From NCBI GenBank assembly GCA_027923505.1, contig BROI01000023.1, positions 434,001 to 498,000 of the forward strand: 64,000 bases of DNA. Reading direction: 5' to 3'. Below the pieces are notes generated by a model. It was given only the letters and a program-made list of their open reading frames with translations. It was not told where the DNA came from and ran no database searches. Shown here in pieces: positions 1 through 50,156 of the stretch. How positions within the stretch are numbered: position 1 is the first letter of the stretch; every line of letters begins with the position of its first letter. Both the position numbers and the translations under genes were made by a program. The DNA is from Mayamaea pseudoterrestris. Lineage: Eukaryota.

Positions 1-5
1 AGACG

Positions 6-4913: not shown

Positions 4914-4931
4914 GTATGACTTGAGGGGAGT

Positions 4932-5243
4932 TGCAGGATGCGAACGAAAACAGCGAAAATCGGGCAAGTCACACCGAATGTCCGATAGGGTGACACAGCG
5001 GCACTCGCGGCTCACCACAGCCTCACGATCGCGTGATGCGTGGCAGCGACGGCTTCGAAGCGATTCAACGAGCATATTGCTGAAACTAGTGCGATATAGA
5101 GTAGAAACAAGCAGACTTACTAAGCTTGAAGAGTTAAGAAAGCGATTTATTCGTCTCTCGTATTGTAGCAACTGCAAGCTTGGATTGGCCATCCAAGGAC
5201 AGCTACAAGCGAAAGGTGCAACGATTTGATTTAGAAGTTACAA
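4932..5243 (+). repeat. 3' LTR of family A copy 1 (312 bp)
   Basis: TGCAGGATG...GTTACAA. About 5 substitutions seen by eye versus the copy 2 LTRs. Confidence 0.93.
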
Positions 5244-5581
5244 AATGTACCGTACGGGCAAATCAGTGGTGAGCTCATGTAGCGTCCACACTCCAACGAC
5301 TTTACTTGAAGAAGCTCGTCAGGCGTGGCCATGAGGTAGGTAGTCATTTCATTCGTCAGGCCATCACCTTGCCCTTCTTTTACATGTAGCCAAACACTAG
5401 ATGAATGATCCGCAACGTAATTGCTGTGTTGACGACGATCTTGAAGCTGATGTTCACGGCTGCAATACCAAACCTCCTTGCATCGCGAGCAACGACGCAA
5501 TTTCTTGTGGAAAAATGGTTCCCTGGATTCACAACCAAAGGCATGGCAGGCCCGATTCAATGGTAGATTAGCGCGGTCCAT
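5244..5581 (-). pseudogene. MYND zinc-finger gene truncated at its 3' end by the retrotransposon
   Basis: CHAFGC..CSRC..YCSREHQ..H is a MYND-like signature. The ORF runs into the LTR and stops inside it. Confidence 0.65.
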
Positions 5582-28275: not shown

Positions 28276-31200
28276 ACCAGTCTCAGCCCACGGTTGCCAA
28301 GATTTAGAGCCACGTGTATGCCCAAATCAAGCCAGAATGCTGCTAACATCCTTATTTCAGGTGCGCTACAAGATGAATTGCCTGGCTGGTCCCTCAGTAG
28401 ACTGCAATGTGATTGGTGACAACTTGTCACCAGTCTCAGCCAGCAGCTGCCATGATTGTTCAAATGCCCATACATAGAGTCATGTGTATGCCCAAATCAA
28501 GCCAGAATGGTGCCAACGTCCTTATTTCAGGTGCGCTACAAGATAAGTTGACTGGCTGGTCCCTCAGTAGACTGCAATGTGATTGGTGACAACTTGTCAC
28601 CAGTCTCAGCCCGCAGATGCCATGACCTTCAAGCGCCCCTACAGCAAGCCCTGTAGGTGCCCTAAACACACCAGAATGGTGCCAACATCCTTATTCAGGC
28701 TGCGCTACAAGATGGCAGGCTTGGCTGGTGTCTCAGGGGATGGCAATGTATTTGGTGACAACTTGTCACCAGTCTCAGCCGGTGGATGCCGTGACATTCA
28801 AACACCCCTACAGCAAGCCCTGTAGGTGCCCAAAATACACCAGAATGGTGCCAACATCATTATTCAAGCTGCTCTACAAGTGGGTAGGCTTGGCTGGTGT
28901 CTCAGGGGATGGAAATGTATTTGGTGACAACTTGTCACCAGTCTCAGCCGGTGGATGCCGTGACATTCAAACGCCCCTACAGCAAGCCCTGTAGGTGCCC
29001 AAAATACACCAGAATGGTGCCAACATCATTGCTCAAGCTGCGCTACAAGTTGGTACACTTGGCTGGTGTCTCAGGGGATGGCAATGTATTTGGTGACAAC
29101 TTGTCACCAGTCTCCACCGGCGGATGCCGTGACATTGAAACGCCCCTACAGCAAGCCCTGTAGGTGCCCAAAATACACCAGAATGGTGCCAACATCCTTA
29201 TTCAGCTTGCGCTAAAATATGGTAGGCTTGTCCGGTGTCTCAGGGGATGGCAATGTATTTGGTGACAACTTGTCACCAGTCTCAGCCCGCGGATGCCGTG
29301 ACATTCAAACGCCCCTACAGCAAGCCCTGTAGGCGCCCAACATACACCAGAATGGTGCCAACATCCTTATTCAGCTTGCGCTACAATATGGTAGGCTTGG
29401 CTGGTGTCTCAGGGGATGGCAATGTATTTGGTGACAACTTGTCACAAGTCTCAGCCCGCGGATGCCGTGACATTCAAACGCCCCTACAGCAACCCCTGTA
29501 GATGCCCAAAATACACCAGAATGGTGCCAACATCATTATTCACGCTGCGCTACAAGATGGCAGGCTTGGCTGGTGTCTCAGGGGATGGAAATGTATTTGG
29601 TGACAACTTGTCACCAGTCTCAACCCGCGGATGCCGTGACATTCAAATGCCCCTACAGCAAGCCCTGTAGATGCCCAAAATACACCAGAATGGTGCCAAC
29701 ATCATTATTCAGGCTGCGCTACAAGATGGTAGGCTTGGCTGGTGTCTCAGGGGATGGCAATGTATTTGGTGACAACTTGTCACCAGTCTCAGCCCGCAGA
29801 TGCCGTGACATTCAAACGCCCCTACAGCAAGCCCTGTAGGTGCCCAAAATACACCAGAATGGTGCCAACATCATTATTCAGGCTGCGCTACAAGTTGGCA
29901 GGCTTGGCTGGTGTCTCAGGGGATGGCAATGTATTTGGTGACAACTTGTCACCAGTCTCAGCCCGCAGATGCCGTGACATTCAAACGCCCCTACAGCAAC
30001 CCCTGTAGGTGCCCAAAATACACCAGAATGGTGCCAACATCATTATTCAGGCTGCGCTACAAGATGGCAGGCTTGGCTGGTGTCTCAGGGGATGGCAATG
30101 TATTTGGTGACAACTTGTCACCAGTCTCAGCCCGCGGATGCCGTGACATTCAAACGCCCCTACAGCAAGCCCTGTAGGCACCCAAAATACACCAGAATGG
30201 TGCCAACATCATTATTCAGGCTGCGCTACAAGATGGCAGGCTTGGCTGGTGTCTCAGGGGATGGAAATGTATTTGGTGACAACTTGTCACCTTGGTGACA
30301 ACTTGTCACCAGTCTCAACCCGCGGATGCCGTGACATTCAAATGCCCCTACAGCAAGCCCTGTAGATGCCCAAAATACACCAGAATGGTGCCAACATCAT
30401 TATTCAGGCTGCGCTACAAGATGGTAGGCTTGGCTGGTGTCTCAGGGGATGGCAATGTATTTGGTGACAACTTGTCACCAGTCTCAGCCCGCAGATGCCG
30501 TGACATTCAAACGCCCCTACAGCAAGCCCTGTAGGTGCCCAAAATACACCAGAATGGTGCCAACATCATTATTCAGGCTGCGCTACAAGTTGGCAGGCTT
30601 GGCTGGTGTCTCAGGGGATGGCAATGTATTTGGTGACAACTTGTCACCAGTCTCAGCCCGCAGATGCCGTGACATTCAAACGCCCCTACAGCAACCCCTG
30701 TAGGTGCCCAAAATACACCAGAATGGTGCCAACATCATTATTCAGGCTGCGCTACAAGATGGCAGGCTTGGCTGGTGTCTCAGGGGATGGCAATGTATTT
30801 GGTGACAACTTGTCACCAGTCTCAGCCCGCGGATGCCGTGACATTCAAACGCCCCTACAGCAAGCCCTGTAGGCACCCAAAATACACCAGAATGGTGCCA
30901 ACATCATTATTCAGGCTGCGCTACAAGATGGCAGGCTTGGCTGGTGTCTCAGGGGATGGAAATGTATTTGGTGACAACTTGTCACCAGTCTCAGCCCGCG
31001 GATGCCGTGACATTCAAACGCCCCTACAACAAGCCCTGTAGGTGCCCAAAATACACCAGAATGGTGCCAACATCATTATTCAGGCTGCGCTACAAGATTG
31101 CAGGCTTGGCTGGTGTATCCGGGGATGGCAATGTATTTGGTGACAACTTGTCACCAGTCTCAGCCCACACATGCCGTGACATTTAAACACCCCTACAGCA

Positions 31201-32135
31201 AGCCCTGTAGGTGCCCAAAATACACCAGAATGGTGCCAACATCATAAGTCAGGCTGCGCTACAAGATGGCAGGCTTGGCTGGTGTCTCAGGGGATGGCAA
31301 TGTATTTGGTGACAACTTGTCACCAGTCTCAACCCGCGGATGCCGTGACATTCAAACGCCCCTACAGCAAGCCCTGTAGGCGCCCAAAATACACCAGAAT
31401 GGTGCCAACATCATTATTCACGCTGCGCTACAAGATGGCAGGCTTGGCTGGTGTCTCAGGGGAAGCCAATGTATTTGGTGACAACTTGTTACCAGTCTCA
31501 GCCTACGGATGCCGTGACATTCAAACGCCCCTACAGCAAGCCCTGTAGGTGCCCAAAATACACCAGAATGGTGCCAACATCATTTTTCCGGCTGCGCTAC
31601 AAGATGGTAGGCTGGGCTGGTGTCTCAGGGGATGACAATGTACTTGGTGACAACTTGTCACAGTCTCAGCCCGCAGATGCCGTGACATTCAAACGCCCCT
31701 ACAGCAAGCCCTGTAGGTGCCCAAAATACACCAGAATGGTGCCAACATCATTATTCAGGCTGCGCTACAAGATGGTAGGCTTGGCTGGTGTCTCAGGGGA
31801 TGGCAATGTATTTGGTGACAACTTGTCACCAGTCTCAGCCCACAGATGCCGTGACATTCAAACGCCCCTACAGCAAGCCCTGTAGGTGCCCAAAATACAC
31901 CAGAATGGTGCCAACATCATTATTCAGGCTGCGCTACATTATGGTAGGCTTGGCTAGTGTCTCAGGGGATGGAAATGTATTTGGTGACAACTTGTCACCA
32001 GTCTCAGCCCGCGGATGCCGTGACATTCAAACGCCCCTACAGCAAGCCCTGTAGGTGCCCAAAATACACCAGAATGGTGCCAACATCATTATTCAGGCTG
32101 CGCTACAAGATGGTAGGCTTGGCTGGTGTCTCAGG
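28276..32135. repeat. 169-bp tandem satellite, about 22-23 units
   Basis: TGGTGACAACTTGTCACCA recurs every 169 bp (28753, 28922, 29091...31982). The first two units are diverged and the array is cut by an LTR at 32136. Confidence 0.98.
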
Positions 32136-32464
32136 TGACACGATAATATCAGACGAACCTTTATTCCAGCGACTACAATGGACTCGGAGCGATCAACCTC
32201 TTCGTCCAGCGTAAAGCAAACAAACAAACTCAATTGCTAGAATAGTGCATGTTACTCGCTACTCTACTCGTGCGCTTCTTTCTCGTTCTCACTGGGTTCA
32301 CGGTCGAGGTTCACGCCTCGATCGTCAGCGATTTCACTCATGTATGTGAGGATTCGGCCACAAGTGTGACTCAACCCTGCACAGGATTAAATGCATACAA
32401 AACACAGGTAGCTAACCGTCTTGTCATGAGACGCAGGTCAACTCAACTCAATAATATTGTGTCA
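32136..32464 (-). repeat. Family B LTR (duplicated 3' LTR)
   Basis: TGACACGATAATAT...ATAATATTGTGTCA with imperfect 14-bp terminal inverted repeats; PPT complement TCCCCCTTGA follows. Confidence 0.95.
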
Positions 32465-32475
32465 TCCCCCTTGAT

Positions 32476-34061
32476 CTAGGCTTGTGACAACGATCGGTTT
32501 GCCGTATCACCCTTCCAGAAAAGAATCGGAATGATCAGGGGTCGGAACGTGGCATGCGGCAAGAACTTGGTAAGAACGTCGGCGACGTTCTGCTTGCCGA
32601 AGATGTGCTCAAAGTACAGAACATTGCTTGCAATGGCCTCGCGAACTCGGTGGTAGGCGAGCGCATTGTGTCGCTTAGAAAGTGTGGAGTGCGGGATCGT
32701 TGACGACTTCTTGACACTTTCGTTGTCGCCGAACATCCAGGCTGGTCCACTCAAAGGAGCTCCCAACATGCGTAGGGAGTATCGGAAATCCATAATCTGT
32801 TCCGTCGCGGTCTTGGTGACGACGAACTCGGATCCATACGTTGCAGTCTCGACAGTATTCTGACGCTTGCAGAACCATTCGACGGGCGTCTGGTTCAGGA
32901 AATGCAGGACTCCCATTGCGGAACGTCCAGTAGTGTAATCATGGTACAGATTCGCGTCCATAAAGGTAGTTAGTTGCACAGGCTTGCCCTTCGGGATTGG
33001 CATGTTCCACGGAAGCTCTTCGCTTGAGTTGCCGTAGACCGATTGCAACCAATCATACTTGGTAGGTTCCCCGTGATCGACGATCTTCGTCCGGAAACGA
33101 ATCGCCGCATCAGGGTACTCAGCTAGGTAACCGCAGACTCGCTTGGCTTGGTCCAGGTGCCGGGCGCGGGGCGCAGCGGAATCGGCCAAGTGTCATTACG
33201 GCACAATGAATGTCAAGTCGACATAGGGTCACTGCCCACTGGAGGGCACCGATAAGAGACTGGTACTGTTGAATGCCACGGGCATCCAGCTCTTCGGTTA
33301 GGTCAAGTTCGGGGTGGTCCCCGTCGTCAAGCGGTGACTTGCGCTTGCGTGGCTTCTCGCCAAACATGGTCTCGTAGTTCTTGAGCATGCGACCGACGTA
33401 GGTCTTCGCGCTCATGCAAAGGGTTCCATCGGGATCACGATAGAAGTCGGCTCTAAGGTGATACTTGATGTCGCCGACGCCCTTCAACTTGTACTTGTAC
33501 TTGTCCTTGAGGAGGTCCGTGAAGGCTTGTGGATCTTTCATGGCCATAGCCAGATCGTCGACGAACACGCCGACGTACTCGTAGTGAGTGCCACAGTCTT
33601 TCATCCAGACGTCAGGGTCCGCGTAACTGGGGTAGAATCCAATGTCGCGGAGTGTGTCGGCAAAGTGCTCATGCCAACGCGCGCCAGAAGTGCGCAATCC
33701 GTATAGTGCCTTGTAGATGACCAAGGTATGGCCTTCCAATGGTCCAAACTCGGGACCGGCAACAACAGTAGACCTTTTCCTTGGTCTTGGCCTCGAGGTG
33801 AGGCGTTACCGACATCGGCAGCCCAAAACTTGAGGTCGTTCAGTTCAGCTAACAGTGCTATGGTTCGGATGCTTCGGATAGATACAACGCCCGAGTAGGC
33901 GGAGTCCTTGGGCGGAGCGGTCAGATGTCCCCCCGCGAGTCGGCCTTACGGTCTAGATCGTTCTTGCAGTCGAAAACAAGATGCGCGTTGATGCGCTTCC
34001 AGTCACTTCCATGAAGGCACCAATGCCTTTGTCGATGAAAGTGTCGTACTCGTGTAGCTGC
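32476..34061 (-). pseudogene. Duplicated RT-RNase H fragment of family B
   Basis: ORFs 32476-33189 and 33119-33739 match 34402-35115 and 35045-35665 at a 1926-bp offset. Confidence 0.9.
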
Positions 34062-34390
34062 TGACACGATAATATCAGACGAACCTTTATTCCAGCGACT
34101 ACAATGGACTCGGAGCGATCAACCTCTTCGTCCAGCGTAAAGCAAACAAACAAACTCAATTGCTAGAATAGTGCATGTTACTCGCTACTCTACTCGTGCG
34201 CTTCTTTCTCGTTCTCACTGGGTTCACGGTCGAGGTTCACGCCTCGATCGTCAGCGATTTCACTCATGTATGTGAGGATTCGGCCACAAGTGTGACTCAA
34301 CCCTGCACAGGATTAAATGCATACAAAACACAGGTAGCTAACCGTCTTGTCATGAGACGCAGGTCAACTCAACTCAATAATATTGTGTCA
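34062..34390 (-). repeat. Family B 3' LTR
   Basis: Appears identical to 32136-32464; adjacent PPT at 34391-34400. Confidence 0.95.
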
Positions 34391-34401
34391 TCCCCCTTGA
34401 T

Positions 34402-37400
34402 CTAGGCTTGTGACAACGATCGGTTTGCCGTATCACCCTTCCAGAAAAGAATCGGAATGATCAGGGGTCGGAACGTGGCATGCGGCAAGAACTTGGTAAG
34501 AACGTCGGCGACGTTCTGCTTGCCGAAGATGTGCTCAAAGTACAGAACATTGCTTGCAATGGCCTCGCGAACTCGGTGGTAGGCGAGCGCATTGTGTCGC
34601 TTAGAAAGTGTGGAGTGCGGGATCGTTGACGACTTCTTGACACTTTCGTTGTCGCCGAACATCCAGGCTGGTCCACTCAAAGGAGCTCCCAACATGCGTA
34701 GGGAGTATCGGAAATCCATAATCTGTTCCGTCGCGGTCTTGGTGACGACGAACTCGGATCCATACGTTGCAGTCTCGACAGTATTCTGACGCTTGCAGAA
34801 CCATTCGACGGGCGTCTGGTTCAGGAAATGCAGGACTCCCATTGCGGAACGTCCAGTAGTGTAATCATGGTACAGATTCGCGTCCATAAAGGTAGTTAGT
34901 TGCACAGGCTTGCCCTTCGGGATTGGCATGTTCCACGGAAGCTCTTCGCTTGAGTTGCCGTAGACCGATTGCAACCAATCATACTTGGTAGGTTCCCCGT
35001 GATCGACGATCTTCGTCCGGAAACGAATCGCCGCATCAGGGTACTCAGCTAGGTAACCGCAGACTCGCTTGGCTTGGTCCAGGTGTCGGGCGCGGGGCGC
35101 AGCGGAATCGGCCAAGTGTCATTACGGCACAATGAATGTCAAGTCGACATAGGGTCACTGCCCACTGGAGGGCACCGATAAGAGACTGGTACTGTTGAAT
35201 GCCACGGGCATCCAGCTCTTCGGTTAGGTCAAGTTCGGGGTGGTCCCCGTCGTCAAGCGGTGACTTGCGCTTGCGTGGCTTCTCGCCAAACATGGTCTCG
35301 TAGTTCTTGAGCATGCGACCGACGTAGGTCTTCGCGCTCATGCAAAGGGTTCCATCGGGATCACGATAGAAGTCGGCTCTAAGGTGATACTTGATGTCGC
35401 CGACGCCCTTCAACTTGTACTTGTACTTGTCCTTGAGGAGGTCCGTGAAGGCTTGTGGATCTTTCATGGCCATAGCCAGATCGTCGACGAACACGCCGAC
35501 GTACTCGTAGTGAGTGCCACAGTCTTTCATCCAGACGTCAGGGTCCGCGTAACTGGGGTAGAATCCAATGTCGCGGAGTGTGTCGGCAAAGTGCTCATGC
35601 CAACGCGCGCCAGAAGTGCGCAATCCGTATAGTGCCTTGTAGATGACCAAGGTATGGCCTTCCAATGGTCCAAACTCGGGACCGGCAACAACAGTAGACC
35701 TTTTCCTTGGTCTTGGCCTCGAGGTGAGGCGTTACCGACATCGGCAGCCCAAAACTTGAGGTCGTTCAGTTCAGCTAACAGTGCTATGGTTCGGATGCTT
35801 CGGATAGATACAACGCCCGAGTAGGCGGAGTCCTTGGGCGGAGCGGTCAGATGTCCCCCCGCGAGTCGGCCTTACGGTCTAGATCGTTCTTGCAGTCGAA
35901 AACAAGATGCGCGTTGATGCGCTTCCAGTCACTTCCATGAAGGCACCAATGCCTTTGTCGATGAAAGTGTCGTACTCGTGTAGCTGCGATGTCGTCAGCC
36001 CACGGGTGTTCCATTGTCACGTCTCAGCCTTCCAGGTATGGAACTTGACCCAAACTTGAAACGCCCCTTGGACACGGTTCTTCTTTGCAGCCTTGCACAT
36101 GCGGTTAAACATTTTAGTGCGTCCTGCCATGCGCCTCAAGCGCTTCCATCCATCCTTTTCCAGCATACCCTTGCGCTTGCCGTACTCGGCAACGGTCACA
36201 GGGTCGGACTTGATAATCAATGCGAGTGGCTCCCAGGTCTTCTCGCCATTTGCCCATTGGATGAGCAGTAGAATGAGCCAACATCATTTTCAGTGCTTCT
36301 TCCGTCAATGAAATCAAACTTGTAGTACTGGTCGTCGTTGTCATCGTCCCCCAGTCGTAAAGAATCTTGCCGCTCGCACAAGTCGGCTAGTTCGTTGTAG
36401 GTAATAAGCTCGTCGACGTCGCCGTCGCCGAGACTCAATCGGAACTTGATGATCTTGTGGTTGGCTTCGTCGCGATCGTTCAGTTGCTCGATAACCTTGT
36501 AACGTCGCGTGGAGCCGTCTTCCTCGTCAAGAAGGACAGTGCGTCCCATCAGTTCAGCCGGAGTAAAGGACGGCATGGGTCCGTCAGGATCCAAACCGGC
36601 TAACTCGGCAGCGCTTTCTAACGTGAATGCGTCTTCATCCACGGTTCCCCCAGAATCAGGCGCTGGGGTCGGTGTAAGGTCGTGTTCAAACACCGGACCG
36701 ACTAGGTCATAATCATCGTCAAACTCGTCGACAGTTTCGACTTGGACTCGTTCACGCGCGGGGCGCGCGTCGAAGACAGGTTCCGCGAACAGTGGTCGTT
36801 CGGACTCGGGTTCAGGAGCGCTTTCAGCTTCAGCGCGTAGGTTACGCCCTTCGGAGAAGGGACGAACGTTGGATCGGACAACAACCATTCCAGTCCGATC
36901 GGATCGGACCTGGTACGTGAGGATGTCACCCTTGTTCTCTGCAATGCCGACCCAGCGTCCTGCTGCTTCCTTGGTGTGAGGAAATGTCGGCTCGTCGGCT
37001 CCGTGTTTCAGCAGGACTTGTTCCCAGAACTTGAACTGCAAACGGCGAAATGTTGTATCGGGCGGTAAGGGTCAGGCACTGACTGGTCCGGATAAGGCGA
37101 TTACGTACAGCGCGCATAGAAGCCAGGCTCCAGCGGGTGCGCCCGTACGGTTCATGATGTTCTGACTGATGACTTGACTTCTTGGATGCGACGCTCGGCA
37201 GGGTTCCCTGGCTGGCCGGTTGTCACGAACGCGTAGAATCGCAACAAGGTTTCAACTTGCTTCCCGAGCTGCACTCGCGAGTTATGCTAATGAGCAAGTC
37301 AGGAGCGCCAATGTCTCGAATGAGTTGAGCGCCATGGGCATGTCACTCTCGGTTCTCAGTGGGTATCCCCTCGTCAGCAGACTCTTCTTGCCGACGAACA

Positions 37401-40110
37401 GTTGCATCATCTTGCATCCGCCATGGCCGCGGATTCCGTCATTAAAGGCGGGTTCCTTGGAAAACCAGGTATCTGTCGCCGTATCGTCATGGAAACGAAC
37501 CACATTGGCGGCAGGGAATCGCGACTTAAAGTGTTGGCGAAATGGGGTGTGTGCCGATGCACGGAAAAGCTGTGTCGTATTCTTAATGGTGCGCTTGACT
37601 CGTTCAAGTGGCGTGTAGCCAAGGTAAGGTCGAAGCGCTTGGTAGTCAGGTTCTTGTGGCATTATGCGTCGTGCATTGGCTTGGCGCGCCGTCGATCAGC
37701 CTGATCGACAATACTGCACCACAACGTTCCACTGAATTCATGTTGTTTCCGGTAGGTGGCGTCGCCGAAGTCATCCATGCGGCGTCGACGAAACCGTGTC
37801 TTCTTCCAATTCGTCGGGTGACGATTAAACTCAAGTTCTTCTTCGTTCCATTCATTATCCAGCTCCGCCGGATCCCAAAGGGTGTCCCGGCAGAGAAAAT
37901 GACCGTCGCCATTCCACTCTGCTGCGGACGCATATTCAAACGGCAAGCCGTCCTCCGGGACTGGTGACAAGCTATTGGTAGCGGACGGCGCAGATCAGAT
38001 GGCGACAAGAAGGCGACGCAGATGAATTGATCAACCCAAAGCTCGTAACTGACCGATAATGGGTCCAGTCCGAGCGTTCAATCAATGCGACGCCAGTTCC
38101 GACTTGGAGGTCGCGAACCGTGTGGTCGCTCAAACCTGTCACGTTACACGTGTGGTTGGTAGTACTCAAGATTCTCATATCGCTTCCAGCGAGTCCACCG
38201 TTCGCACCGCCGTCAATCAGCGATCCTTGGCGGGTCTCGTTGCTGCGAGCTCGATTCACCGTGTAGCGCACCGATACCATTGCCGCGTGCCGACGGCTCC
38301 ATAAACTCTTGCTGGGTGTTATTCGCAGCTTGAGTGCGAGACGACGCGGCGTTCGCAAGGAAGGATCTAATCATGTCATCCGGTGCACCTTGAGTGGCTG
38401 TCGTCGGGGCGATCGAGACAGCGTCATTCTGATACAAGATTGTACCAGGCACCGATGCAGCCGCTTGTGACTGCTGGTTATTCGCACGGTTACCGTTGTT
38501 CGCGCGTCTTGTGGTGGCGGGTCTTGGGACGGCTTCGCGTCGAGTCATGAGCTGAGCGTATTCGTCCTCGTTAAGTCGGCCGAGTCGTTCGTACGACATG
38601 TACGACCAAGGGTTCTGCAACAACTGTTCAAAGTTTAGATAATCGCCAGGGAATCGTTCCCGATGCGCTTGCGTACCGGCTGCTGGTAGTGGCGCGGAAG
38701 AGCCTCGTCCTCCGGAACCGCGGCTCACTTGGGAACCCCGCCCACCTCTCTCACCGCCCAGCGTCCGCTTGGCGCTCCTCCGCCGCGACCAGAACCGCGT
38801 CCATTACCACGTCCTTGCCCGGAAGTGTTCGCGTTGTTCGCTTGGCGGTCGGCGTTCTTCTTGCCCTTATTCAACTTGGCGTTCTTGTTGTCGACGCGCA
38901 AAGCCTGCTGCGACAACATGTCGAAAAGACAGTCATAATCTTCCGTCACGACGGCGTCTGGGTCACCATTTGCACTGATGATGCGTCGTCGTTCAAATTG
39001 CAGGTGCTGGTCGAACGTCGTGCACGTGGGGCCGAATTCTTCGTCGCCCTCCACTGCAGCTCGTAGCCAGTAGTACTTCTTCTTGTCATCCGTCACTCCA
39101 GGACGAAACTCTTCGAGATTCTTCATGAGCTGTTCGATGTAGTTTAGGAACTTGTAGTGTCCTTTCGTCCAGGTCGAATCTAGGCGAATCGTCGCAAGCT
39201 TGGCTTGCAGTTCGTTCGCTTGGATGGTAGCTAACTCGCCGGAACCAAACTTGGTCGCGAGTTCGCGATAGACGCCTTGAGCGTCAGACTTGTCGCCGTA
39301 CTTCATCAGGAGCGACTGGTGTCCAGGGACTTCGAGACAATTGCGAAACGCAGTGTACATGAAGACTTGCTGATTCTCGAATTCTAATCTCTCTTCTTCC
39401 GTGACTGGTACGTACTTGCTGTCGAGCACGTTAGAACAGCCATGGAGTTTGGCGATTGCCTTGGTAGACGCGCTCCAACTCAACCACGCGTGGGGATGTT
39501 GGAACGTTTTGTAGTCCTTGTAGTCTCGTTTCGTCTTGAGATTCGAGAAACGACCCTTGGCATCTTCTTCCTTTTCGGCCTTCTCGGCCTTCACATTCTC
39601 ATTTTCGAGTTGCTTGGCAAGTAGCTCGGCTTGCTTCTTCTTGGACTCGAGTACGTAGTATCCTTCTTCACGCTTCCGCGCGATTTCTTGTTCCGCGAGA
39701 ACCGCTTGGTATCGCTCGAGCTTGCCTAAGTCCAGCAACGCCCATTTCTTGGTGTTCGGGGGTCCGTCGTGCATGGTAAACCATTCGCATGCATCGAGGA
39801 TGAGGTTCACGTAGACTGGTGCTAGTGTCGTTTCGTATCGTTCAGGTGCGGCGGCTGCTTGTTCCTCGGCCGGTTCTTCGGCCGGCTCGTCGCCCGGCTG
39901 CGCATCGTCGGGTTGCGCGCCTTCTTCTTGCTCAGCGCCAGCTGGGATGGCGGCTCTGTCGACCCAGTAGGGGGCTTCAAGTTGCTCCTTGGTCAATCTC
40001 AACATCTGGGTAGTGGTGGTTACATTCCAAAACAAGAACGCTTCTTGGATGTCTCGTCCGAAAACGTTCGTGCAGAGAAGCTGCAAAGCTTCCGCAGTAA
40101 TTGAAACCAT
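34402..40110 (-). pseudogene. Family B gag-pol with multiple frameshifts
   Basis: Consecutive ORF fragments homologous to the family A polyprotein (EPDYQALRPYLG, TDTWFS, KALYGLRTSGARW, TATYGSEF). Confidence 0.9.
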
Positions 40111-40328
40111 GATAATGAATACCTCGCTTCCGCAAGTCCTCTCTCACACAACAACCGCTCTCAATGCGGTCGAGCCTTATACGATCCTGTTCTACGCGCT
40201 CGTGCCAAGTATTCGGATTGACGACGCCGCAATGAATCTGCTCTTTCTCTCTCAATTTCTCGATTCTTTCACTCTCTCTCTTTCGCACAGCTCTCTCAGG
40301 TCAAGACAAGCTAGCAAGACTGTTAATC

Positions 40329-40657
40329 TGACACGATAATATCAGACGAACCTTTATTCCAGCGACTACAAAGGACTCGGAGCGATCAACCTCTTCGTCC
40401 AGCGTAAAGCAAGCAAACAAACTCAATTGCTAGAATAGTGCATGTTACTCGCTACTCTACTCGTGCGCTTCTTTCTCGTTCTCACTGGGTTCACGGTCGA
40501 GGTTCACGCCTCGATCGTCAGCGATTTCACTCATGTATGTGAGGATTCGGTCACAAGTGTGACTCAACCCTGCACAGGATTAAATGCATACAAAACACAG
40601 GTAGCTAACCGTCTTGTCATAAGACGCAGGTCAACTCAACTCAATAATATTGTGTCA
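40329..40657 (-). repeat. Family B 5' LTR
   Basis: Four substitutions seen versus the other two B LTRs; followed on the minus strand by GATTAACAGTCTTG. Confidence 0.95.
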
Positions 40658-40837
40658 GACTGTGCCCAGCACAAGTCCGCCTCCATCCGGTAGAAGAACT
40701 TCTGCAAGTAAGAATCTGTCATAGGCTTCCCAGTCAACATCATCCGCGGCAGGAGCTTGCTCTTCTTTGGTAGTCTCATCCTCGTAAGGCTGATACTCTG
40801 GTGGTTCATATTCGGGTACTTCTGGATTGGCAATGAT
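40658..40837 (-). mobile_element. Fragment of host element C (integrase C-terminal region)
   Basis: Translates IANPEVPEYEPP..AYDRFLLAEVLLPDGG and is in frame with the ORF ending at ~47383 once element A2 is removed. Confidence 0.88.
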
Positions 40838-43800
40838 TGCAGGATGCGAACGAAAACAGCGAAAATCGGGCAAGTCACACCGAATGTCCGATAGGGTGAC
40901 ACAGCGGCACTCACGGCTCACCACAGCCTCACGATCGCGTGATGCGTGGCAGCGACGGCTTCGAAGCGATTCAACGAGTATATTGCTGAAACTAGCGCGA
41001 TATAGAGTAGAAACAAGCAGACTTACTAAGCTTGAAGAGTTAAGAAAGCGATTTATACGTCTCTCGTATTGTAGCAACTGCAAGCTTGGATTGGCCATCC
41101 AAGGACAGCTACAAGCGAAAGGTGCAACGATTTGATTTACAAGTTACAAGATTAACACTGTCTTGAGACTCATTGCCTCGGCATAGAGACTTTATTGACG
41201 AAGAGTACTATTGATTTACGAAGTAACGTGGACGCACGTTGGTTCTTGGCCCGGAAAGTTCCGCAGGTGATAGCAAGAACATTGTCACGACGACAACGAT
41301 GGCGGAAACTCGCGCGCAGAAAGACGCGGCGTTTGCGCATGTTACGAAAGAGACGTAGGCGTTTTCCAGGATCCTCAGTTCAAGGAGTTATTCGACGAAC
41401 TCGGAGTAGAATCGCTTACGCAATTGATCGAGATGGAGTACGACGATTTCGCGACGAAGTGGAACGTCACGACGACGACAACGACGACGACTGACGATGG
41501 CGACAATGTCACGCAGGAAACGAGCGAACACTCGCTAACGAAGATGAAACAACGCACAATCACGAACGCGATCAAATGGTATTTGGCGCAAGAGTCGCCG
41601 GACATCAAGACATGGTCGCAACTGACCACCGAAACGCTGGCGACGTTCGTCACAGCACGAGCGAAGGAACGAGTCCAAGCGCGCAACATTGCGAGCGTGG
41701 GCAACGGAAGCGGAGCGAAACCTCCAGCGAAGGAAAGCGAAACGGAATCCAAGAAGGATGAATCCAAGGACTCCACGCTAACGAACGAAGGCGACGAGTC
41801 GAAACCCGACTCGGCCGACAAGGTGCCACCGACGAGCGTGGACGTGACACGAAGCAGTCACCGACATCCGATGGACCTCGGACGACGAAGACGACGAGAA
41901 GTATTCAGACCAATTTAGAAAGTCTATCAAGTTCTCGTGAAGGATTGTAAAGAAATGAAGCTGGATTCCTCGTGGAAACAGTGGATTTCCGAGTTGAAAG
42001 TCATCGCTACATTGCACGACTTCCACGAAGTCTTTGACGACGATTATGACCCGAAGGAAAAGGGACCGAAGGAACAGAAGGCGTATGCAAAGAAGAATGT
42101 GTTTATATACAGAATCTTTCTCACGCACTGTCGAACTCCGTCTGCATCACTCGCAGTACAGCAGTTCAAGAAGACGATGGACGGACGCGAAGTCTACCAA
42201 CGATTGCGAACGCGATACGAAGAAGGCGCTACTGCTCACATCGAGAAGGAACGCGCGCGAACGGAACTGCAGGGAATGCGGCTGACCGAGAAGTGGTCAA
42301 GGCCGACGATCGAATTTCTCGCACTGTTCTACAAGAAAGTCATCTGGCTGCTCGAAATGGACGCAGAAGCTCTGACAGGTTTACAACGATACGACATGCT
42401 ACGTGACGCTTTCTTGAGCACACTGGATTCAGCGCCTCGCTAGCAGGTTTTGACGGAATGATTGCCATCAAGAAACACATGGGGCAACACGATTCGGAAG
42501 ACAATTTCGCGCAGTTGTACGCGCACTTAGAAGAGTGCTGCATCAAGTATGACAAGAAACATCCATCGACGACGAAGACTAAGCGCACAATCAATCAAGC
42601 GCAGTCTAGTGGAACGAAAGGAGGCGGCGGCGGCAATGGCGGCGCGACTCCAAGCGGCTTATCGGCGGAACGATTTGCAGCGATCATGAAGAAACCTCAC
42701 GCGAGCGTGAAGGATGAAGTCTGGTTGGAGATGAAGTTCGATCAGCGAAAGCAGTTGAAGGACAAGCGTGCGACGGCACCCAAGACACCCAACGGATGGC
42801 GACCGCGCAACCAACGAGGCACGGCTACGATGCAGACGCAAGTCAACGCGGCGCATCAAGAGCGTCACGCGACGGAATCTGTAGCGAACGATCACGCAAG
42901 CGTTCCTGGCACGATTAATATTCAGCCAGGCAATAGTGGAATGTCAGTCCAAACGGCTGCACGATCGGTTCTCGAAAACAATGCGCAGTACTACAACTCA
43001 GCAAGTGACAGGATCGTTGACGACTGATAACACCGGACGAGGTACATTCAGCTTCAACATGCATCGTCGTGATGCGCGTCAATCGCGCCTACGAGCGGAT
43101 CAACGAAGCGCTCATCGACAGCGGCGCGAACGGAGGCTTATGCGGAGGAGACATGCTCGTCGTTTCGGAAACGAACGCCGAGGTGGATGTGACTGGTATT
43201 GACGATCATATTGTCCCAGCTCTCAAGATTGGCACTGCAGCTGGACTGGCAAAGACCCTTAGTGGCGAAACCATTCTGCTTTTGTGTCACCAGTATGCTT
43301 TAAAGCGAGACGGACCGACGATTCATTGCCCGAATCAATTGCGCGCAATGGGACATCGTGTCGACGATATTCCGATCATGTTTGGCGGAACGCAACGAAT
43401 TACGACGAACATTGGAGGCTACGCGGCCATTGGCGATTCGCGGCGGCCTGGTGTACTTGGACGTGACGAAACCCACGTTCGATGATTTGGATAAGTATCC
43501 GACTGTCATCATGACGTCGGACGTGCCGTGGGACCCGACTGTTTACGATGTCGAGCACGCGCACGACGATTTTGACGAACGCGATCACGATTATGGATCT
43601 TTTGACGAACGATTCGACGATGACGGTATCACGCACCGCAATCGTCACACGCCGACACGCACGGCGACGTGATGATCATCGGTCGTGCCAGCAGTTGTTT
43701 ACGTTAATTAAGGAAGCGAAGCAGGGAAGACTATAATGCTCTTGGCCCATCTGGATGGGTACCGACTGAGCGAGTTCAACAGACTTTACGTCACACGGAA

Positions 43801-46800
43801 GCATGGTATCATCTCAGCGAACATCCGCGATTACCATTTCGACACCTCACGAAATCGAGATTTCCGGCCGCGAACGTTCAGCGGTTGCGCGAGCTATTCG
43901 CCACGGACACGATACACTCTGACACGCCAGCTTTGGATGATGGAATTCTAGGGCATGGGGGAGCTACTAAGATGCAGCTCTTTGTTGGACGAGAAAGTTT
44001 TTACACGCGCGGCTACCCGATGAAGTCGGAAAGCGAAATGTCAAACGCGTTAGAGGATTTTATCCGCGAAGTGGGCGCTCCTAACGGACTGCTCAGCGAC
44101 AATGCCAAGTCGGAGACTGGCAAGGCTGTGAGGGATCTCTGTCGGATGTACAATATTCCTCAAGTGACCACCGAACCGGGTCACCCAGAACAAAATCCAT
44201 GCGAACGCCACACGTCGCACATTAAGCCAATGATGGAGAACCTCCAACGAGATTCGGGTTCGCCAGGTCATTGCTGGGTTTTGCTGATTAAATTCGTAAT
44301 CATGATTCTGAATGTCCTCGCGACAAAATCGCTGGGATGGCGCACTCCAACGGAAGTTGCGTTCGGAAATTTGCCGGATATTTCGCCTTTGTTACATTTC
44401 AAGTGGTGGGAACCGGTCACGTTTGAGGCGCAGGGGAGTTTTCCCTCGGCGGTACGATCTGGCAACGGCCGATTCGTGGGCATCGCAGAGAATAGCGGTC
44501 CGCACATGACTTTTCTTGTTCTGACGGACGACACGCTTCAGGCGATTCCGCGCTCCAACGTGGTCTCGCGCAGCTACTTGTTACCACGAGAGTTGCCTTC
44601 CTTCCCTGAGTCTGGAGGGGAGATTTCTGAAGAAGCTACACGCGCAAGCGAACAAAATTTTGAAAATTTTGAAACTCCAGATCTCGCGACAGGACACTAC
44701 CATAGCACGAATGCGACAGAAAGTAGTCACGACAACTACGAAGGAAACGACGACGAAACGATTCCGATGGCGAACCACGCCAACGTACCAGCGAAGTTCT
44801 TCAGAAGGGCTGAGCAAGAATCAGGGAATAAATGCCCTCTGTTCTCTCCAAGCGAACTCATCGGACGCACGTTCGTAAGGGAACACGAAAACGGTCAGAA
44901 AATGCGAGCGACTGTATGCGAATATATCGAAGTACGCGATAACGAGCTACTCGAAACGACGAAAGGTTTCCTGATCCAGATGGGAGAGGAGCCAGCGAAA
45001 GACTTAATAAGTTACAACGAACTGTCGGATTTAATCGAACGACAGATGGACGAAGATATACGAAACGATCCGGCGACTCAGTGGGTATTCACGAAGGTAA
45101 TCGGACACGAGCTTAATTTGAAACCGAACGATCCGACATATAAAGGAAGTTCAAGTAACGTTCTCGTCGAATGGACCGACGGAACGACGACGTGGGAGCC
45201 TCTCGCGATCATGAAAAAGGACGATCCGATAACGATCGCAGAGTATGGACTCAAGCACGGCTTACTCGACAAGCCAGGATGGAAGCAGCTGGAACATTAC
45301 ACTCGGAAGCGAAAGAAGTTTCGACAGATGGTGACAGCAGCGAAACGAAAATCGAAAGCAAACGGCGTACGCTACAAATTTGGCGTAAGACTGCCGCGCA
45401 ATTATAAAGATGCGAAAGCTCTCGACGAGATCAACGGCAACACGCTGTGGACGGATGCGATTCGAACGGAATTAAATCAGATAAATGATTACGACACGTT
45501 CGCAGATCAAGGAGTCGGTAAGGTTATGCCGGCGCCATGGAAACGAATAAACGTGCACATGATATTCGATGTCAAGCACGATTTGCGACGGAAAGCACGA
45601 CTCGTCGCAGGAGGACATATGACAGAGCCGCCGAAGGATTCAGTTTACTCGGGCGTTGTGTCATTGCGAAGTCTACGAATGGTAGCAATGTTAGCGGAAC
45701 TCAACGGTCTGGAACTGTGGGCAGCTGACGTCGGCAACGCATACTTGGAAGCGAAAACGAAAGAGAAGGTTTATATCGTGGCAGGTCCGGAGTTCGGGGA
45801 GCTTGAGGGTCACACGCTCACGATCGTGAAGGCATTATACGGTCTTCGCACGTCAGGCGCACGCTGGCACGAGCACTTTGCAGACACGCTCCGCGACATT
45901 GGCTTCACGCCGTGTATCGCAGAACCGGACGTGTGGATGCGCGATAAGGGCACGCACTACGAATACGTTTGTGTGTATGTCGACGATTTAGCGATAGCAA
46001 TGAAGAATCCGAAGGAACTAACGGATCTTTTAATTGAGAACTACAACTACAAGTTGAAGGGCGTCGGTCCATTGGCATATCATTTGGGCGCAGACGTTTG
46101 GCGGGACGACGACGGCGTACTCTGCTTCGGAGCGAAGAAGTACGTCACAAGACTATTAGCGAACTACAAAGAAATGTTCGGCGAGGAACCGCGACCGCAG
46201 ACAAGTCCACTACGCGACGGCGATCATCCGGAACTCGACGAAACGAAAGAACTTGACGACGACGGAATTGCGAAGTATCAATCGATCATTGGTGCGTTGC
46301 AATGGGCAGTAAGTTTATGTCGATTCGACATTCACTGTGCTGTCATGACTATGGGGAGATTCCGAGCTGCGCCACGAGCGGGGCACTTGGAACGGTTGAA
46401 GCATATCTGCGGATACTTACGACGATACCCGGATGGAGCGATTCGATTCAACGTTTCGATTCCAACGGACGAGCGATACGCGACAGTTGACAAGATGGAT
46501 TGGGATTACAGTGTGTACGGCAAGATCTGCGAAGAGCTTCCGTGGAACATGCCCACGCCGCGCGGCAAGGCGGTGCGAATGTCAACGTTCGAAGATGCGA
46601 ACCTGTACCACGATTACACGACGGGACGGGCAGCGATGGGCATGCTACACATGTTGAATGGGACAGTCGTCGATTGGTTTTCGAAACGCCAAGCGACGGT
46701 CGAGACGGCAACGTACGGCTCGGAGTTTGTAGCAGCGAGAGTGAGCACGGAGCAGATCATGGATCTCCGCTTCACGCTACGCATGTTGGGAGTTCCGCTC

Positions 46801-47382
46801 GACGGACCTTCATGGATGTTTGGAGACAACAAGTCGGTAACGCAAAGCAGCAACTTACCGCACTCTAGTCTGACGAAGCGACACAATGCACTGGCATTTC
46901 ACCGTGTACGCGAAGCGATTGCGGCGGGAATTATTAATTTCAACCACATCATGGGAACGACAAACCCGGCGGATGTACTTACCAAGTTTCTTCCACGGGC
47001 TACGGCAAGCAAGCACTTAAAGAACCTGCTCTTCAAGGAATCTAACTATTAGGTATGACTTGAGGGGAGTTGCAGGATGCGAACGAAAACAGCGAAAATC
47101 GGGCAAGTCACACCGAATGTCCGATAGGGTGACACAGCGGCACTCACGGCTCACCACAGCCTCACGATCGCGTGATGCGTGGCAGCGACGGCTTCGAAGC
47201 GATTCAACGAGTATATTGCTGAAACTAGCGCGATATAGAGTAGAAACAAGCAGACTTACTAAGCTTGAAGAGTTAAGAAAGCGATTTATACGTCTCTCGT
47301 ATTGTAGCAACTGCAAGCTTGGATTGGCCATCCAAGGACAGCTACAAGCGAAAGGTGCAACGATTTGATTTACAAGTTACAA
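40838..47382 (+). mobile_element. Full-length Ty1/copia family A copy 2, nested in element C
   Basis: 312-bp LTRs 40838-41149 and 47071-47382 appear identical; target-site duplication ATGAT (40833-40837 and 47383-47387); PPT at 47060-47069. Confidence 0.97.
41299..47052 (+). pseudogene. Family A copy 2 gag-pol: gag/PR frameshifted, IN-RT-RH (43885-47052) open
   Basis: Near-identical to ORF 6-4913 but broken by indels before ~43770. Confidence 0.88.
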
Positions 47383-50156
47383 ATGATTACAGGATCTTGG
47401 TTGTAGCCAATGCCATACCGATCTTGTATCACTCTGTTGAAAGCTTCTTTCTTGGCATTGAGAGCGTCGTCCCTTAGATCCTCATCCGACATTGGGAAGA
47501 CTGATGACCGGTGAACCACTGCCCCTGTGTCAGTCAGTATCTTTGAAGTCATAGCTTGTCCAACGTCAGCAGAAGGCCCCAGATAGCGTCCAAGAAGATA
47601 GTTATCTTCGTCCAGCTTTGGCGGGTTCCAATACCACACCCAGTCATACCAAGCAAACTCAGCAAATTCGATATCAGCCGTAGTCCCTAGCAAGTATGAC
47701 CTTGGAGTGTGTTCCATCGAGAACGTACCGTCGCCATATATGACGTTCGCAGCCTGCAACTCGTAGCAATCATCCCAAAACCGTGTTGGAGCATTAGACT
47801 TGCGCATTGCGCGCTTGTACATGTGTTTCAGGACATGATTGGTAGATTCACAGCGTTGATGATTTGGAGTCCATGGCTCAGTGGAATGGATATGAGAGCC
47901 TGCAGCTCTTGCCTTCTTGAGAAAGTCGCCTGCGACAAGCTCAGGTGCATTGTCCGGCGTCAAGATCTTGGGTCCTCCAACATCACGAAATAATAGCTCC
48001 AGAGTCTCTGGTGCTTGCTTTCTTGCCTTCATTGGATACACAGACGTGAAACTTGCATCTGTGCAGTATACTTGGAGATATTGGTTGCCTCTGCGCGACT
48101 TGCAAGGTCCTTGCATAGTGTCAGTGAACATGAACGTGTTCAGATTGCGAAAGCGCAGGGCTTCAGCTCTGGACCACATTCTTCGCATCAGCCGCTCCCC
48201 GGCAAAGTGTCGCACTCCAAGCTGAGTGACAACCTGGAGAGTCTTTCTTGCCGTCTCCAATCCAATGTTCCATCGGCGCTGCAACTGTTCGGCAGTCACA
48301 GCTCCCTTTCGTTTCCGCGTTCGGACAGCACTTTGAATTCTGATCATATCAGCATGCGAGAAGCACTTGTCTTCCTTGATCGTTGACAAGACATCTTTTG
48401 GTGATTGCCAAATTGACACTCCCACTTTGGAGATGCTCCGATCAAACATGTCAAAGTCAATGCCAGGATAAGTTTCCTCCATGAGGGCTTCTTCCCTTCT
48501 TGTAAAGCTGTCGTCCTGTGGATTGTATTGTGGGCTTGAGTAGGTCATATCGATCCACTCATAGGTATCTTTGTCCTCCTCTGTAGGCTTTCTCGCATGA
48601 AATAAGGAAATGACTCCATCACAGAGTAGCGGAATGTGCAAGCCAGCTTCTGGTGCAAGAATGCTGTGCACCTTCTTTCCTTTTGCCTTAGAGAGGAATC
48701 GCGGACAGTCGTGTACCTCCAAGTCATTCAAACGCATTTGATTTGGATTGAGCAGATGACAATTGAGATTGTCAAACAGCAAGACTTGGTTGAACCGAAG
48801 CATATAAGTCTTCAGCTCCAATGGATGGTCGTATGCCACAAGCACATCAGCAACTTGGACATTCTCGACGCAACCCATTCCTTCCATGAAGGGCGTAACA
48901 GATACTGTCTGATCTTGCGTAGCAACCACACTGCAGTATCTACTTGAGAAGCAGCAAGTGTCCGCGTGCGAGTCGAGCTCGGCGCGTGTTACTTCCGGAT
49001 GAACCACATCCAATGCAGACTCTGCTCTTGCTACCGATCGCCTTGATGAGGTAATCGCATGAATGAAACGGCTCGTGGGTTTGAAAGTGCAAGTCTTTTG
49101 AGGCGCGTCTTTGGCGAGAAGATCTGGGAGAGACTCGAGATTATATATCGGATAAGTCTCGTCGCGGTCTTCTTCCATTTCATCTCTTGCATCGCAGCTG
49201 TCCCCTGGCATGTCCCCTGACATTGTCGAGCCTAGGATCGCGTCCTCCAACCTGGTCCCCTCACATTCAAACTCCGCGAGTCAGGTACGACGCCCCATCG
49301 TCTCACCTAGACGGGTGTCTTCAGCAGGCGTATCTGCTTCCGAAGCAGCAGCCAATTGCTGAGTAAGTGTTTCATTAGCAGCCTTGAGGGCTGCAATAGC
49401 TCGGCGTTGAGCTTTAAGAGTGGCCTTGCCTGTACCCTGAGTAGCGCCACCACCACCTCCACTGCCGCCGTTCTTCTTCTTGTATGCCTTCCTCTTTTGA
49501 ATAATCTTGTCCGCGCGACCATCCTTCTTCATAGCATCCCAAACGGCCTTTGGAAACCAGTCGCCTGACTTCTTGGAGCTTGGAGATCCGCTAGACTGCC
49601 CTTGTGAAGGGCTGCCAAAAGATGTCGCTGCAGCGGCGACGCGGCGACGTTGCGCTGCTTCGGATTTAATATTCATGACCAAAGAGGTGTAGTAGGTAAC
49701 AACCTTGTCATAGGTGTCGAGCCGACGGTCGGCGAGGTCTTCGTAACCAAAATCCAAGATATAGGCTCGCTTGCCAGCTTGCAAAGCGTCGTTTTGAATG
49801 GAATCGTTGAGAAAAGTGATCTTCTCTTCGTCAGTAAGCACTTTGCCTTCTTGCAATAGATCATTAAAGCAGCCTTGCAAAATTCCAAGGAATTTCTCCC
49901 ATGGAGTCTTGGTCTCGCTCACATAGAACGTAGACTTGAGCTTGGCTTCTGCCTCGACCTTAATCCGCGAGCGGCTGGATCGCGACAGATAATGACCTTC
50001 AACAGCCTTGTACGCCGCACGCCCGTTGCCAGAGCCTGAACAATGTGTAGGCTTGAGGTCATCAAATGTCTCAAGTCCTTGGGCAAGAAGCGCACCCTGC
50101 ATGGGAGCAGGGATAGTGAGCTCGTTCGTGAGGTAGTTGGCGAAGTTGGCATCCAT
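47383..50156 (-). mobile_element. Ty1/copia family C: gag (50156-49281) and PR-IN (49280-47383); RT/RH and 3' LTR absent
   Basis: Protease RAELDSHADTCC, LLNPNQMR; integrase RRWNIGLETARKTL, FTDT..TPDNAPE..CE, GRYLGPS; gag-like GRAAYKAVEGHY. The 5' LTR could not be delimited. Confidence 0.9.

Follow-up and report, generated by a model that had tools for sequence, protein, structure and literature searches.

A primer of about 40 nucleotides (nt) derived from the initiator tRNA-Met (tRNAiMet) has been demonstrated by biochemical work in Drosophila copia and by genetic work in yeast Ty5. Both elements are cited, in the excerpts of PMC10886601 and PMC6317226, as priming at the anticodon stem-loop of this tRNA. 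Half-tRNA sites in plant Copia elements are confined to certain lineages and correspond to tRNA-Met and tRNA-Ile, according to the excerpt of Neumann et al. (PMC6317226), in which Bianca is assigned a 1/2 tRNA-Ile with inosine at position 34 (I34), and Osser, Bryco and Gymco-II a 1/2 tRNA-Met. The primer-binding site (PBS) of FunCo1, ATTAAGAGTCT, was assigned to an internal region of tRNA-Lys in the part of Donnart et al. (PMC5445492) that deals with this element. Anticodon-loop PBSs for Tyr, Ile, Asp and iMet have been described from rust-fungus Copia elements and the non-autonomous Helenus elements (Kojima, PMC10886601). A tRNA-Asn-GTT primer is named once in that work, for one fungal Helenus lineage (PMC10886601). 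Two Ty1/copia elements, A on the plus strand and B on the minus strand, are arranged head to head in the 64-kb stretch of contig BROI01000023.1 analysed here (positions 434,001 to 498,000; hereafter the window). From the sequences that directly follow their 5' long terminal repeats (LTRs), minus-strand synthesis of A and B is probably primed in the manner of copia and Ty5, by a 3'-truncated tRNA-Asn(GUU) that ends at nt 40 or 41 rather than by a tRNA CCA end.

The following features of the two elements were identified (positions in the window).

40837-41149, plus strand: 5' LTR of element A, 313 nt by identity, with a TG...CA core at 40838-41148
41150-41165, plus strand: predicted PBS of element A, consisting of GATTAACA, the insert CT and GTCTTG
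43885-47052, plus strand: pol open reading frame (ORF) of element A, 1055 amino acids (aa), integrase followed by Ty1/copia reverse transcriptase
47062-47069, plus strand: polypurine tract of element A, GAGGGGAG, abutting the 3' LTR
47070-47382, plus strand: 3' LTR of element A, 100% identical to the 5' LTR of A
40329-40657, minus strand: 5' LTR of element B, 329 nt, TG...CA on the minus strand
40315-40328, minus strand: predicted PBS of element B, GATTAACAGTCTTG, complementary to nt 27-40 of a tRNA-Asn with the stem CAAGA
35045-35665, minus strand: reverse-transcriptase fragment of element B (RVT_2, E 1.3e-13)
34391-34398, minus strand: polypurine tract of element B, AAGGGGGA, preceding the 3' LTR
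34062-34390, minus strand: 3' LTR of element B, 98.8% identical to 40329-40657

Element B reads GATTAACAGTCTTG on the minus strand (40328-40315), immediately after the final CA of its 5' LTR (which ends ...TATCGTGTCA), and element A reads GATTAACACTGTCTTG, that is GATTAACA-CT-GTCTTG, on the plus strand (41150-41165), after ...AGTTACAA. When the boundaries of the LTR pairs were used to re-read them, both sequences stood where the first-pass annotation of this DNA had placed them. The 5-bp target duplication of A is ATGAT (40833-40837 and 47383-47387) if the LTR ends in CAA, or AATGA (40832-40836 and 47382-47386) if it ends in CA, so that the motif of A begins 0 or 1 nt past the LTR, respectively. 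The complement of the 11-mer core of the site is GACTGTTAATC, which contains the loop CTGTTAA with the anticodon GTT, closed by a G-C and an A-T pair. The GATTAACA of A is the complement of tRNA-Asn nt 33-40. Measured against the tRNA-Asn(GTT) genes of other organisms, complementarity to nt 27-40 extends over 14 nt in B and over 8+6 nt in A. The C at 40314, the base after the 14-mer of B, would pair with G26 of tRNA-Asn genes seen elsewhere, and the A of the LTR-terminal CA could give one further pair, with tRNA nt 41. The layout proposed from the window, an anticodon arm with GTT that ends 2 nt into the 3' stem, thus agrees with that of real tRNA-Asn genes elsewhere. The pattern GATTAACAN{0,2}GTCTTG has two matches in the window, both at the two LTR junctions, and none in 100 shuffles. 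The 8-mer GATTAACA occurs three times in the window on both strands, the third time at 28063, where it does not adjoin any LTR. Within 30 nt past either 5' LTR there is no TGG-type site, as had been claimed before.

ORFs matching RVT_2 are located downstream of the site on the same strand in both A and B, and polypurine tracts stand before the 3' LTRs, which makes the orientation of the site right for a PBS. In the pol of A, RVT_2 was matched at aa 549-760 (Pfam, E 1.3e-25) and rve at aa 41-101 with 21.7 bits, under the Pfam cut-off of 32.6. The coding region of B is split over several ORFs, and no integrase was detected in B by Pfam. Comparison of A with B by tblastx gave segments of 24-74% aa identity, the longer ones from integrase to RNase H having 47-74%, and just two stretches (about 72%) are alignable at the DNA level. 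The two LTRs had been described as looking unrelated, and blastn between them gave nothing beyond 7-10-nt matches (E >= 1.6). By these comparisons A and B can be classed as different families within one Ty1/copia lineage, and A, with its identical LTRs, is the younger of the two. Over its whole 1055 aa, the pol ORF of A is best matched by a hypothetical protein from the diatom Mayamaea pseudoterrestris (99% identity). This match, together with relatives on metagenome contigs and on diatom-type contigs in genome bins (see below), indirectly suggests that A and B are CoDi-like.

In the proposed mechanism, the element RNA would present the site GAUUAACAGUC(UUG) directly after U5. The site would pair with nt (27-)30-40 of the tRNA, a stretch that takes in the 5' side of the anticodon stem, the loop CUGUUAA in full and two nt at the start of the 3' side. 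A cut through this stem, after nt 40 or 41 of the tRNA, would make a 3' OH usable, and the resulting primer would be about 40 nt long. As far as copia and Ty5 are described in the excerpts cited above, A and B resemble them in belonging to the same superfamily, in having a PBS that abuts the 5' LTR and complements an internal tRNA stretch ending in the 3' strand of the anticodon stem, and in lacking TGG. They differ in that the site of A and B matches Asn(GUU) and not iMet, and in that A and B are known from sequence alone. The FunCo1 site, as given in the excerpt of PMC5445492, has the same register as the core of A and B and equals it in 10 of 11 bases, the difference lying opposite anticodon position 34; FunCo1 represents Lys(CUU) in fungi, whereas A and B represent Asn(GUU) in diatoms. 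The plant lineages, to judge from the same portion of PMC6317226, offer the parallel that in certain Copia clades the type of half-tRNA primer is characteristic of the lineage. The Helenus case with tRNA-Asn concerns a single non-autonomous fungal lineage, and the text there is not outright on the anticodon-loop type, whereas A and B belong to an autonomous diatom lineage.

The site of B implies a particular tRNA arm, which was sought in public sequence. For this purpose the complement of the site was closed to a full anticodon arm, and the resulting 17-mer, CAAGACTGTTAATCTTG, was searched in viral and metagenome contig collections. It was found in 57 viral loci and in at least 119 metagenome loci. 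Among the matches listed, the 17-mer forms the anticodon arm of a tRNA-Asn(GTT) gene called by ARAGORN in 104 of 176 loci, and these genes comprise 53 distinct tRNA sequences. The arm that the first-pass annotation had predicted therefore exists, and it is real and recurrent. Two of these tRNA-Asn loci (L076 and L106) adjoin capsid genes of nucleocytoplasmic large DNA viruses, and some such loci come from large DNA viruses of eukaryotes. The type represented by L065 and L070 is located on a eukaryotic nuclear contig, beside genes of the eIF2B and PGP-phosphatase types; the best named matches of the neighbour gene in L070 are in zygomycete fungi. A eukaryote-like tandem tRNA-Asn pair followed by a T-run was found in L058. 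The remaining 72 listed loci have no tRNA-Asn call, several of them resemble cut-off or uncalled tRNAs, and none of the 72 is related to A or B by tblastx. One candidate for a diatom contig among the loci with the arm (L127) was rejected, as the one named match of its neighbour gene, a Thalassiosira protein with 50% identity, is too weak; the protein atlas gave nothing further on this neighbour.

Relatives of A and B were obtained with an alignment of pol relatives; when each prokaryote species, represented by a single genome, was scanned with it, 35 loci (L177-L211) were returned. These 35 Copia loci are clearly diatom-type contigs mis-binned into 'bacterial' metagenome-assembled genomes (MAGs). 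The MAG labels under which such contigs are carried include Sphingobacteriaceae (one bin with many contigs), Weeksellaceae, Algoriphagus, Bacteroidaceae, Lyngbya and Dehalococcoidia. As these MAGs are species representatives and hold diatom-type Copia contigs, the bins concerned are contaminated. No relatives were found by a single-protein search of genome contigs or by an alignment search of viral contigs.

LTR junctions were examined in the 35 loci and in further contigs from the same MAG bins. The exact 11-mer core, GATTAACAGTC, was found after the LTR end in L178, L180, L188, L189, L191, L205, L223, L225, L227, L228 and L286, and L183 contains the core with a 1-nt insert (A, at L183:5500). 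The A of L183 and the CT of element A are inserted at one position of the PBS, after the eighth base, opposite tRNA nt 32/33. For 7 of the 12 related junctions the contig also includes pol, spaced from the site as expected, and two of these seven (L191 and L205) contain both LTRs too. The site is located 2959 nt upstream of pol in L178 and 2876 nt in L180, compared with 2735 nt in A. In L183, L188 and L189 it lies 465-722 nt past the pol match, which is what a collapse of two LTRs in assembly gives. The 150 nt upstream of the site were compared among 15 junctions, and only one of 105 pairs (L223 and L227) was alike; downstream, gag is homologous in many pairs. In these alignments, where unrelated LTRs meet diverged gag genes, the site stands out as the sole nucleotide sequence that is conserved, which is as expected for pairing with a host RNA. 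All 14 Asn-type junctions (A, B and the 12 relatives) have C opposite anticodon position 34. The three bases after the core are TTG in 10 junctions (including A and B), GCA in two, TCA in one and GTA in one. One junction contig of 1.2 kb (L228) also has an ARAGORN Asn(gtt) call on its minus strand (L228:674-745), 235 nt from the Copia-type PBS; its position 33 is C, and its acceptor stem pairs poorly. This tRNA-like sequence may be a pseudogene or a tRNA-derived repeat.

A distant relative (L197), with a pol 39% identical, has a different site in the same register, namely GATTATCAGCC directly after the CA of its LTR (L197:3751-3761). The complement of this site is a CUGAUAA loop with an isoleucine anticodon, which is GAU on a literal reading and IAU on the assumption of an inosine-34 pairing with C, and L197 would accordingly be primed by tRNA-Ile. 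When read as IAU, the site needs the I34-C reading that the excerpt of PMC6317226 gives for Bianca, whereas A and B match the Asn loop instead. The same position and register combined with a different anticodon is the pattern expected for tRNAs that are cut in the anticodon stem. The half tRNA-Asn priming proposed in the first-pass annotation has thus been strengthened by the PBS-like behaviour of the site, by its conservation beside unrelated LTRs and by an Ile-type relative. The accompanying remark that such priming was not known to be described went too far, as half-tRNA sites for Ile (PMC6317226) and Lys (PMC5445492), and for Tyr, Ile, Asp and iMet along with the Asn-GTT Helenus lineage (PMC10886601), are in print.

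The host arm foreseen from the window was CAAGACTGTTAATC(TTG). The window itself contains no tRNA by ARAGORN, and no Rfam match at E <= 0.1. The element region was found in nine public runs, and no RNA runs are listed among the nine. Four small runs from a second study (X5-X8), with type unrecorded, contain about half of the sampled 38000-47400 words, like the DNA runs; if X5-X8 are RNA, the elements are transcribed. The Logan contigs of four other runs (X1-X4) were aligned at 80% likeness to a tRNA-Asn gene that has the predicted arm (L040:270-352). One contig from each of the four runs aligned at reference positions 281-315 (tRNA nt 7-41) with 30 of 35 letters alike, and X1 gave an additional 280-nt contig (depth 2.4) aligned at 281-320. 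The contigs at 281-315, one per run, continue CT GTGTC GTTTG TTCAAAT CAAAC TCTTGG. They run on into a T arm and an acceptor strand and hence represent a tRNA, with GCCAGG... in its acceptor strand and GTTTG/CAAAC in its T arm. In its D arm and anticodon region this host tRNA, of the Asn or another isotype, is similar to the reference.

Pattern searches of the MAG bins that carry diatom Copia contigs (G001-G014) gave many loose matches and no eukaryotic-looking tRNA-Asn. ARAGORN called tRNA-Asn in eight of the fetched MAG loci (L226/L253, L222/L239, L212/L242, L233, L285, L288, L290 and L291). These eight were judged to be bacterial from their sequence, their position on large contigs, their occurrence as one per bin and, for L233, a CCA that is encoded. 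For further tRNA-like matches in G005-G014 the judgement was based on the matched letters and not on ARAGORN.

The observed basis for priming by a tRNA-Asn half consists of where the site lies, its conservation beside LTRs that are unrelated, its complementarity to the tRNA-Asn of other organisms, the lack of an alternative PBS and the Ile-type site of L197. From these we infer a matching arm in the host tRNA-Asn, cleavage of this tRNA and priming by the fragment. Several points weigh on the other side. The whole case is built on DNA sequence. The site of A is interrupted by the CT insert (41158-41159) though A is the younger element, and A keeps 8 contiguous pairs at the primer 3' end; these rise to 11 at most if the tRNA has TCTTG as its 3' strand and is cut further 3'. 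Of the 12 supporting junctions, five are on short contigs that do not include pol, so that their context is presumed. The last 3 nt of the 14-mer vary among the relatives, even between L178 and L180, the gag genes of which are 84% identical, and clear constraint is accordingly seen on the 11-nt core alone. If the three aligned 3'-stem bases of the host contig tRNA match the reference, its 3' stem strand would be TCTCT and not TCTTG. Should this tRNA be tRNA-Asn, B would pair with it by 12 Watson-Crick pairs and one G-U pair, not by 14. The stem GAGA deduced in that case would also fit the TC of L178 at positions 12-13, giving 13 contiguous pairs. Should it be another tRNA such as Lys, it is uninformative for the pairing of B. 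No contig with the exact predicted arm is listed for X1-X4, and an absence there carries no weight.

Alternatives to a primer in the form of a tRNA-Asn half differ in the primer or in the role of the site. With tRNA-Asn still the partner, the primer could be an internal fragment of about 19 nt that spans from the D-loop to the anticodon, or else an intact tRNA that anneals through its anticodon arm and is nicked only inside the particle. The sequence data fix the 3' end of the primer and not its 5' end, which leaves room for both forms, and tRNA fragments from the anticodon region are reported for P. tricornutum; the copia primer is reported as a 5' half (cited in the excerpt of PMC10886601), and we consider either form unlikely. 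It is improbable that the motif is instead a conserved cis-element, such as a hairpin, dimerisation or packaging site, with a coincidental likeness to tRNA-Asn. In A, the site and the last 3 nt of the LTR do make a perfect 5-bp hairpin (CAAGA-loop-TCTTG), and in fungal GalEa the place of the PBS is taken by a conserved palindrome for which no primer is known, according to the excerpt of PMC5445492. At the other junctions, however, which were inspected by eye and with no folding, the LTR end gives about 3 pairs at most. The 'loop' TTAACAG is invariant and the outer 'stem' varies with no visible compensation in the LTR, the reverse of what a structural hairpin would give. An 11-nt match to one tRNA loop in a known register, accompanied by an Ile-type variant, would also be hard to obtain by chance. 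GalEa, with its 'conserved hairpin site', and the self-priming Tf1 likewise have non-canonical sequences at the PBS position; unlike them, A and B have no conserved palindrome and no complementarity to their own LTR beyond that of shuffles.

Queuosine occupies position 34 of tRNA-Asn. This bears on the proposal that the primer is half of a tRNA-Lys (CUU or UUU), as was suggested for fungal FunCo1, the site of which is one base off the diatom core. The host tRNA in the X1-X4 contigs could be tRNA-Lys, as its anticodon is unread, but the C opposite position 34 in A, B and the 12 relatives pairs with G or queuosine and not with the C or modified U of Lys, which makes a Lys primer very improbable. 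Self-priming as in Tf1, in which the 5' end of the transcript folds onto the site and is cut, has been predicted for some Copia lineages, including TAR (excerpt of PMC6317226), and is scarcely credible here: the longest Watson-Crick/G-U run between site and LTR is 7 in A (reached in 462 of 500 shuffled LTRs) and 8 in B (194 of 500), and self-priming would have the site co-vary with the LTR of each family, whereas it is constant beside unrelated LTRs. A PBS for a tRNA 3' end was rejected, there being no TGG in the 30 nt past either LTR. With this and with a pairing no better than that of shuffles, a better match of the motif to a tRNA 3' end or to a self-priming LTR segment, which the first-pass annotation had named as the outcome that would overturn it, is excluded.

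A wider and doubtful extension of tRNA-Asn priming in A and B is that the whole diatom Copia lineage to which they belong uses tRNA-Asn(GUU) cut after nt 40 or 41, and that relatives have swapped to tRNA-Ile(IAU) by a change of three PBS bases with the register kept. If lineage-wide use of Asn with a swap to Ile were true, the cut would follow the geometry of the anticodon stem whichever tRNA is used, and it would then be made by an activity that the element encodes or by a general nuclease of the host. The inserts at a fixed position of the PBS (+CT in A, +A in L183) would in that event be scars of primer copying.

The site of A and B is shared by a whole group of diatom elements, and the priming mode is already known from other Copia elements. 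What is new here is probably the extension of half-tRNA priming in Copia by a further tRNA species and a further host group, as read from the sites described above. With Asn, and Ile in a relative, added to the tRNAs used in this register, half-tRNA priming in Copia would appear to be flexible and not a peculiarity of the initiator tRNA. Diatom Copia elements thereby gain a defined, if predicted, PBS, and the 11-mer after the terminal CA can serve as a simple marker of intact 5' ends. A fragment of tRNA-Asn of about 40 nt, ending at nt 40 or 41, is predicted to be made by diatoms or by the particles. A PBS filter that tests tRNA 3' ends only would miss such a site, and LTRdigest is understood to be a filter of this kind. 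In PMC7466962 the PBS appears solely among the LTRdigest filter criteria. Neither a PBS nor a tRNA is mentioned in the main texts of PMC2806351 (Maumus et al. 2009), PMC8147415, PMC2774666 and bioRxiv 10.1101/2025.10.24.684338. Full-text literature searches likewise gave nothing on a diatom PBS, and the 11-mer and its complements led to unrelated papers only.

Further copies of both elements are present in the window. A third copy of the LTR of A (98.4% identical) was found at 4931-5243, and positions 1-5244 represent a second copy of A that is truncated at its 5' end. The LTR of B at 40329-40657 is also 98.8% identical to a copy at 32136-32464. Target duplications of B were sought in the flanks of 34062-40657 and of 32136-40657, and no matching 5-mers were found in either case. 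A 1926-nt tandem duplication is located at B, with 32136-34061 and 34062-35987 being 99.9% identical, and each unit contains the LTR of B and the 3' end of its internal region including the polypurine tract. A satellite array at 28295-32280, composed of about 22 copies of a 169-bp unit (one of them of 188 bp), reaches the duplicated LTR of B. On the other side of the element pair, a 626-aa ORF without a Pfam match (47370-49250, minus strand) begins within the end of the 3' LTR of A and heads away from it.

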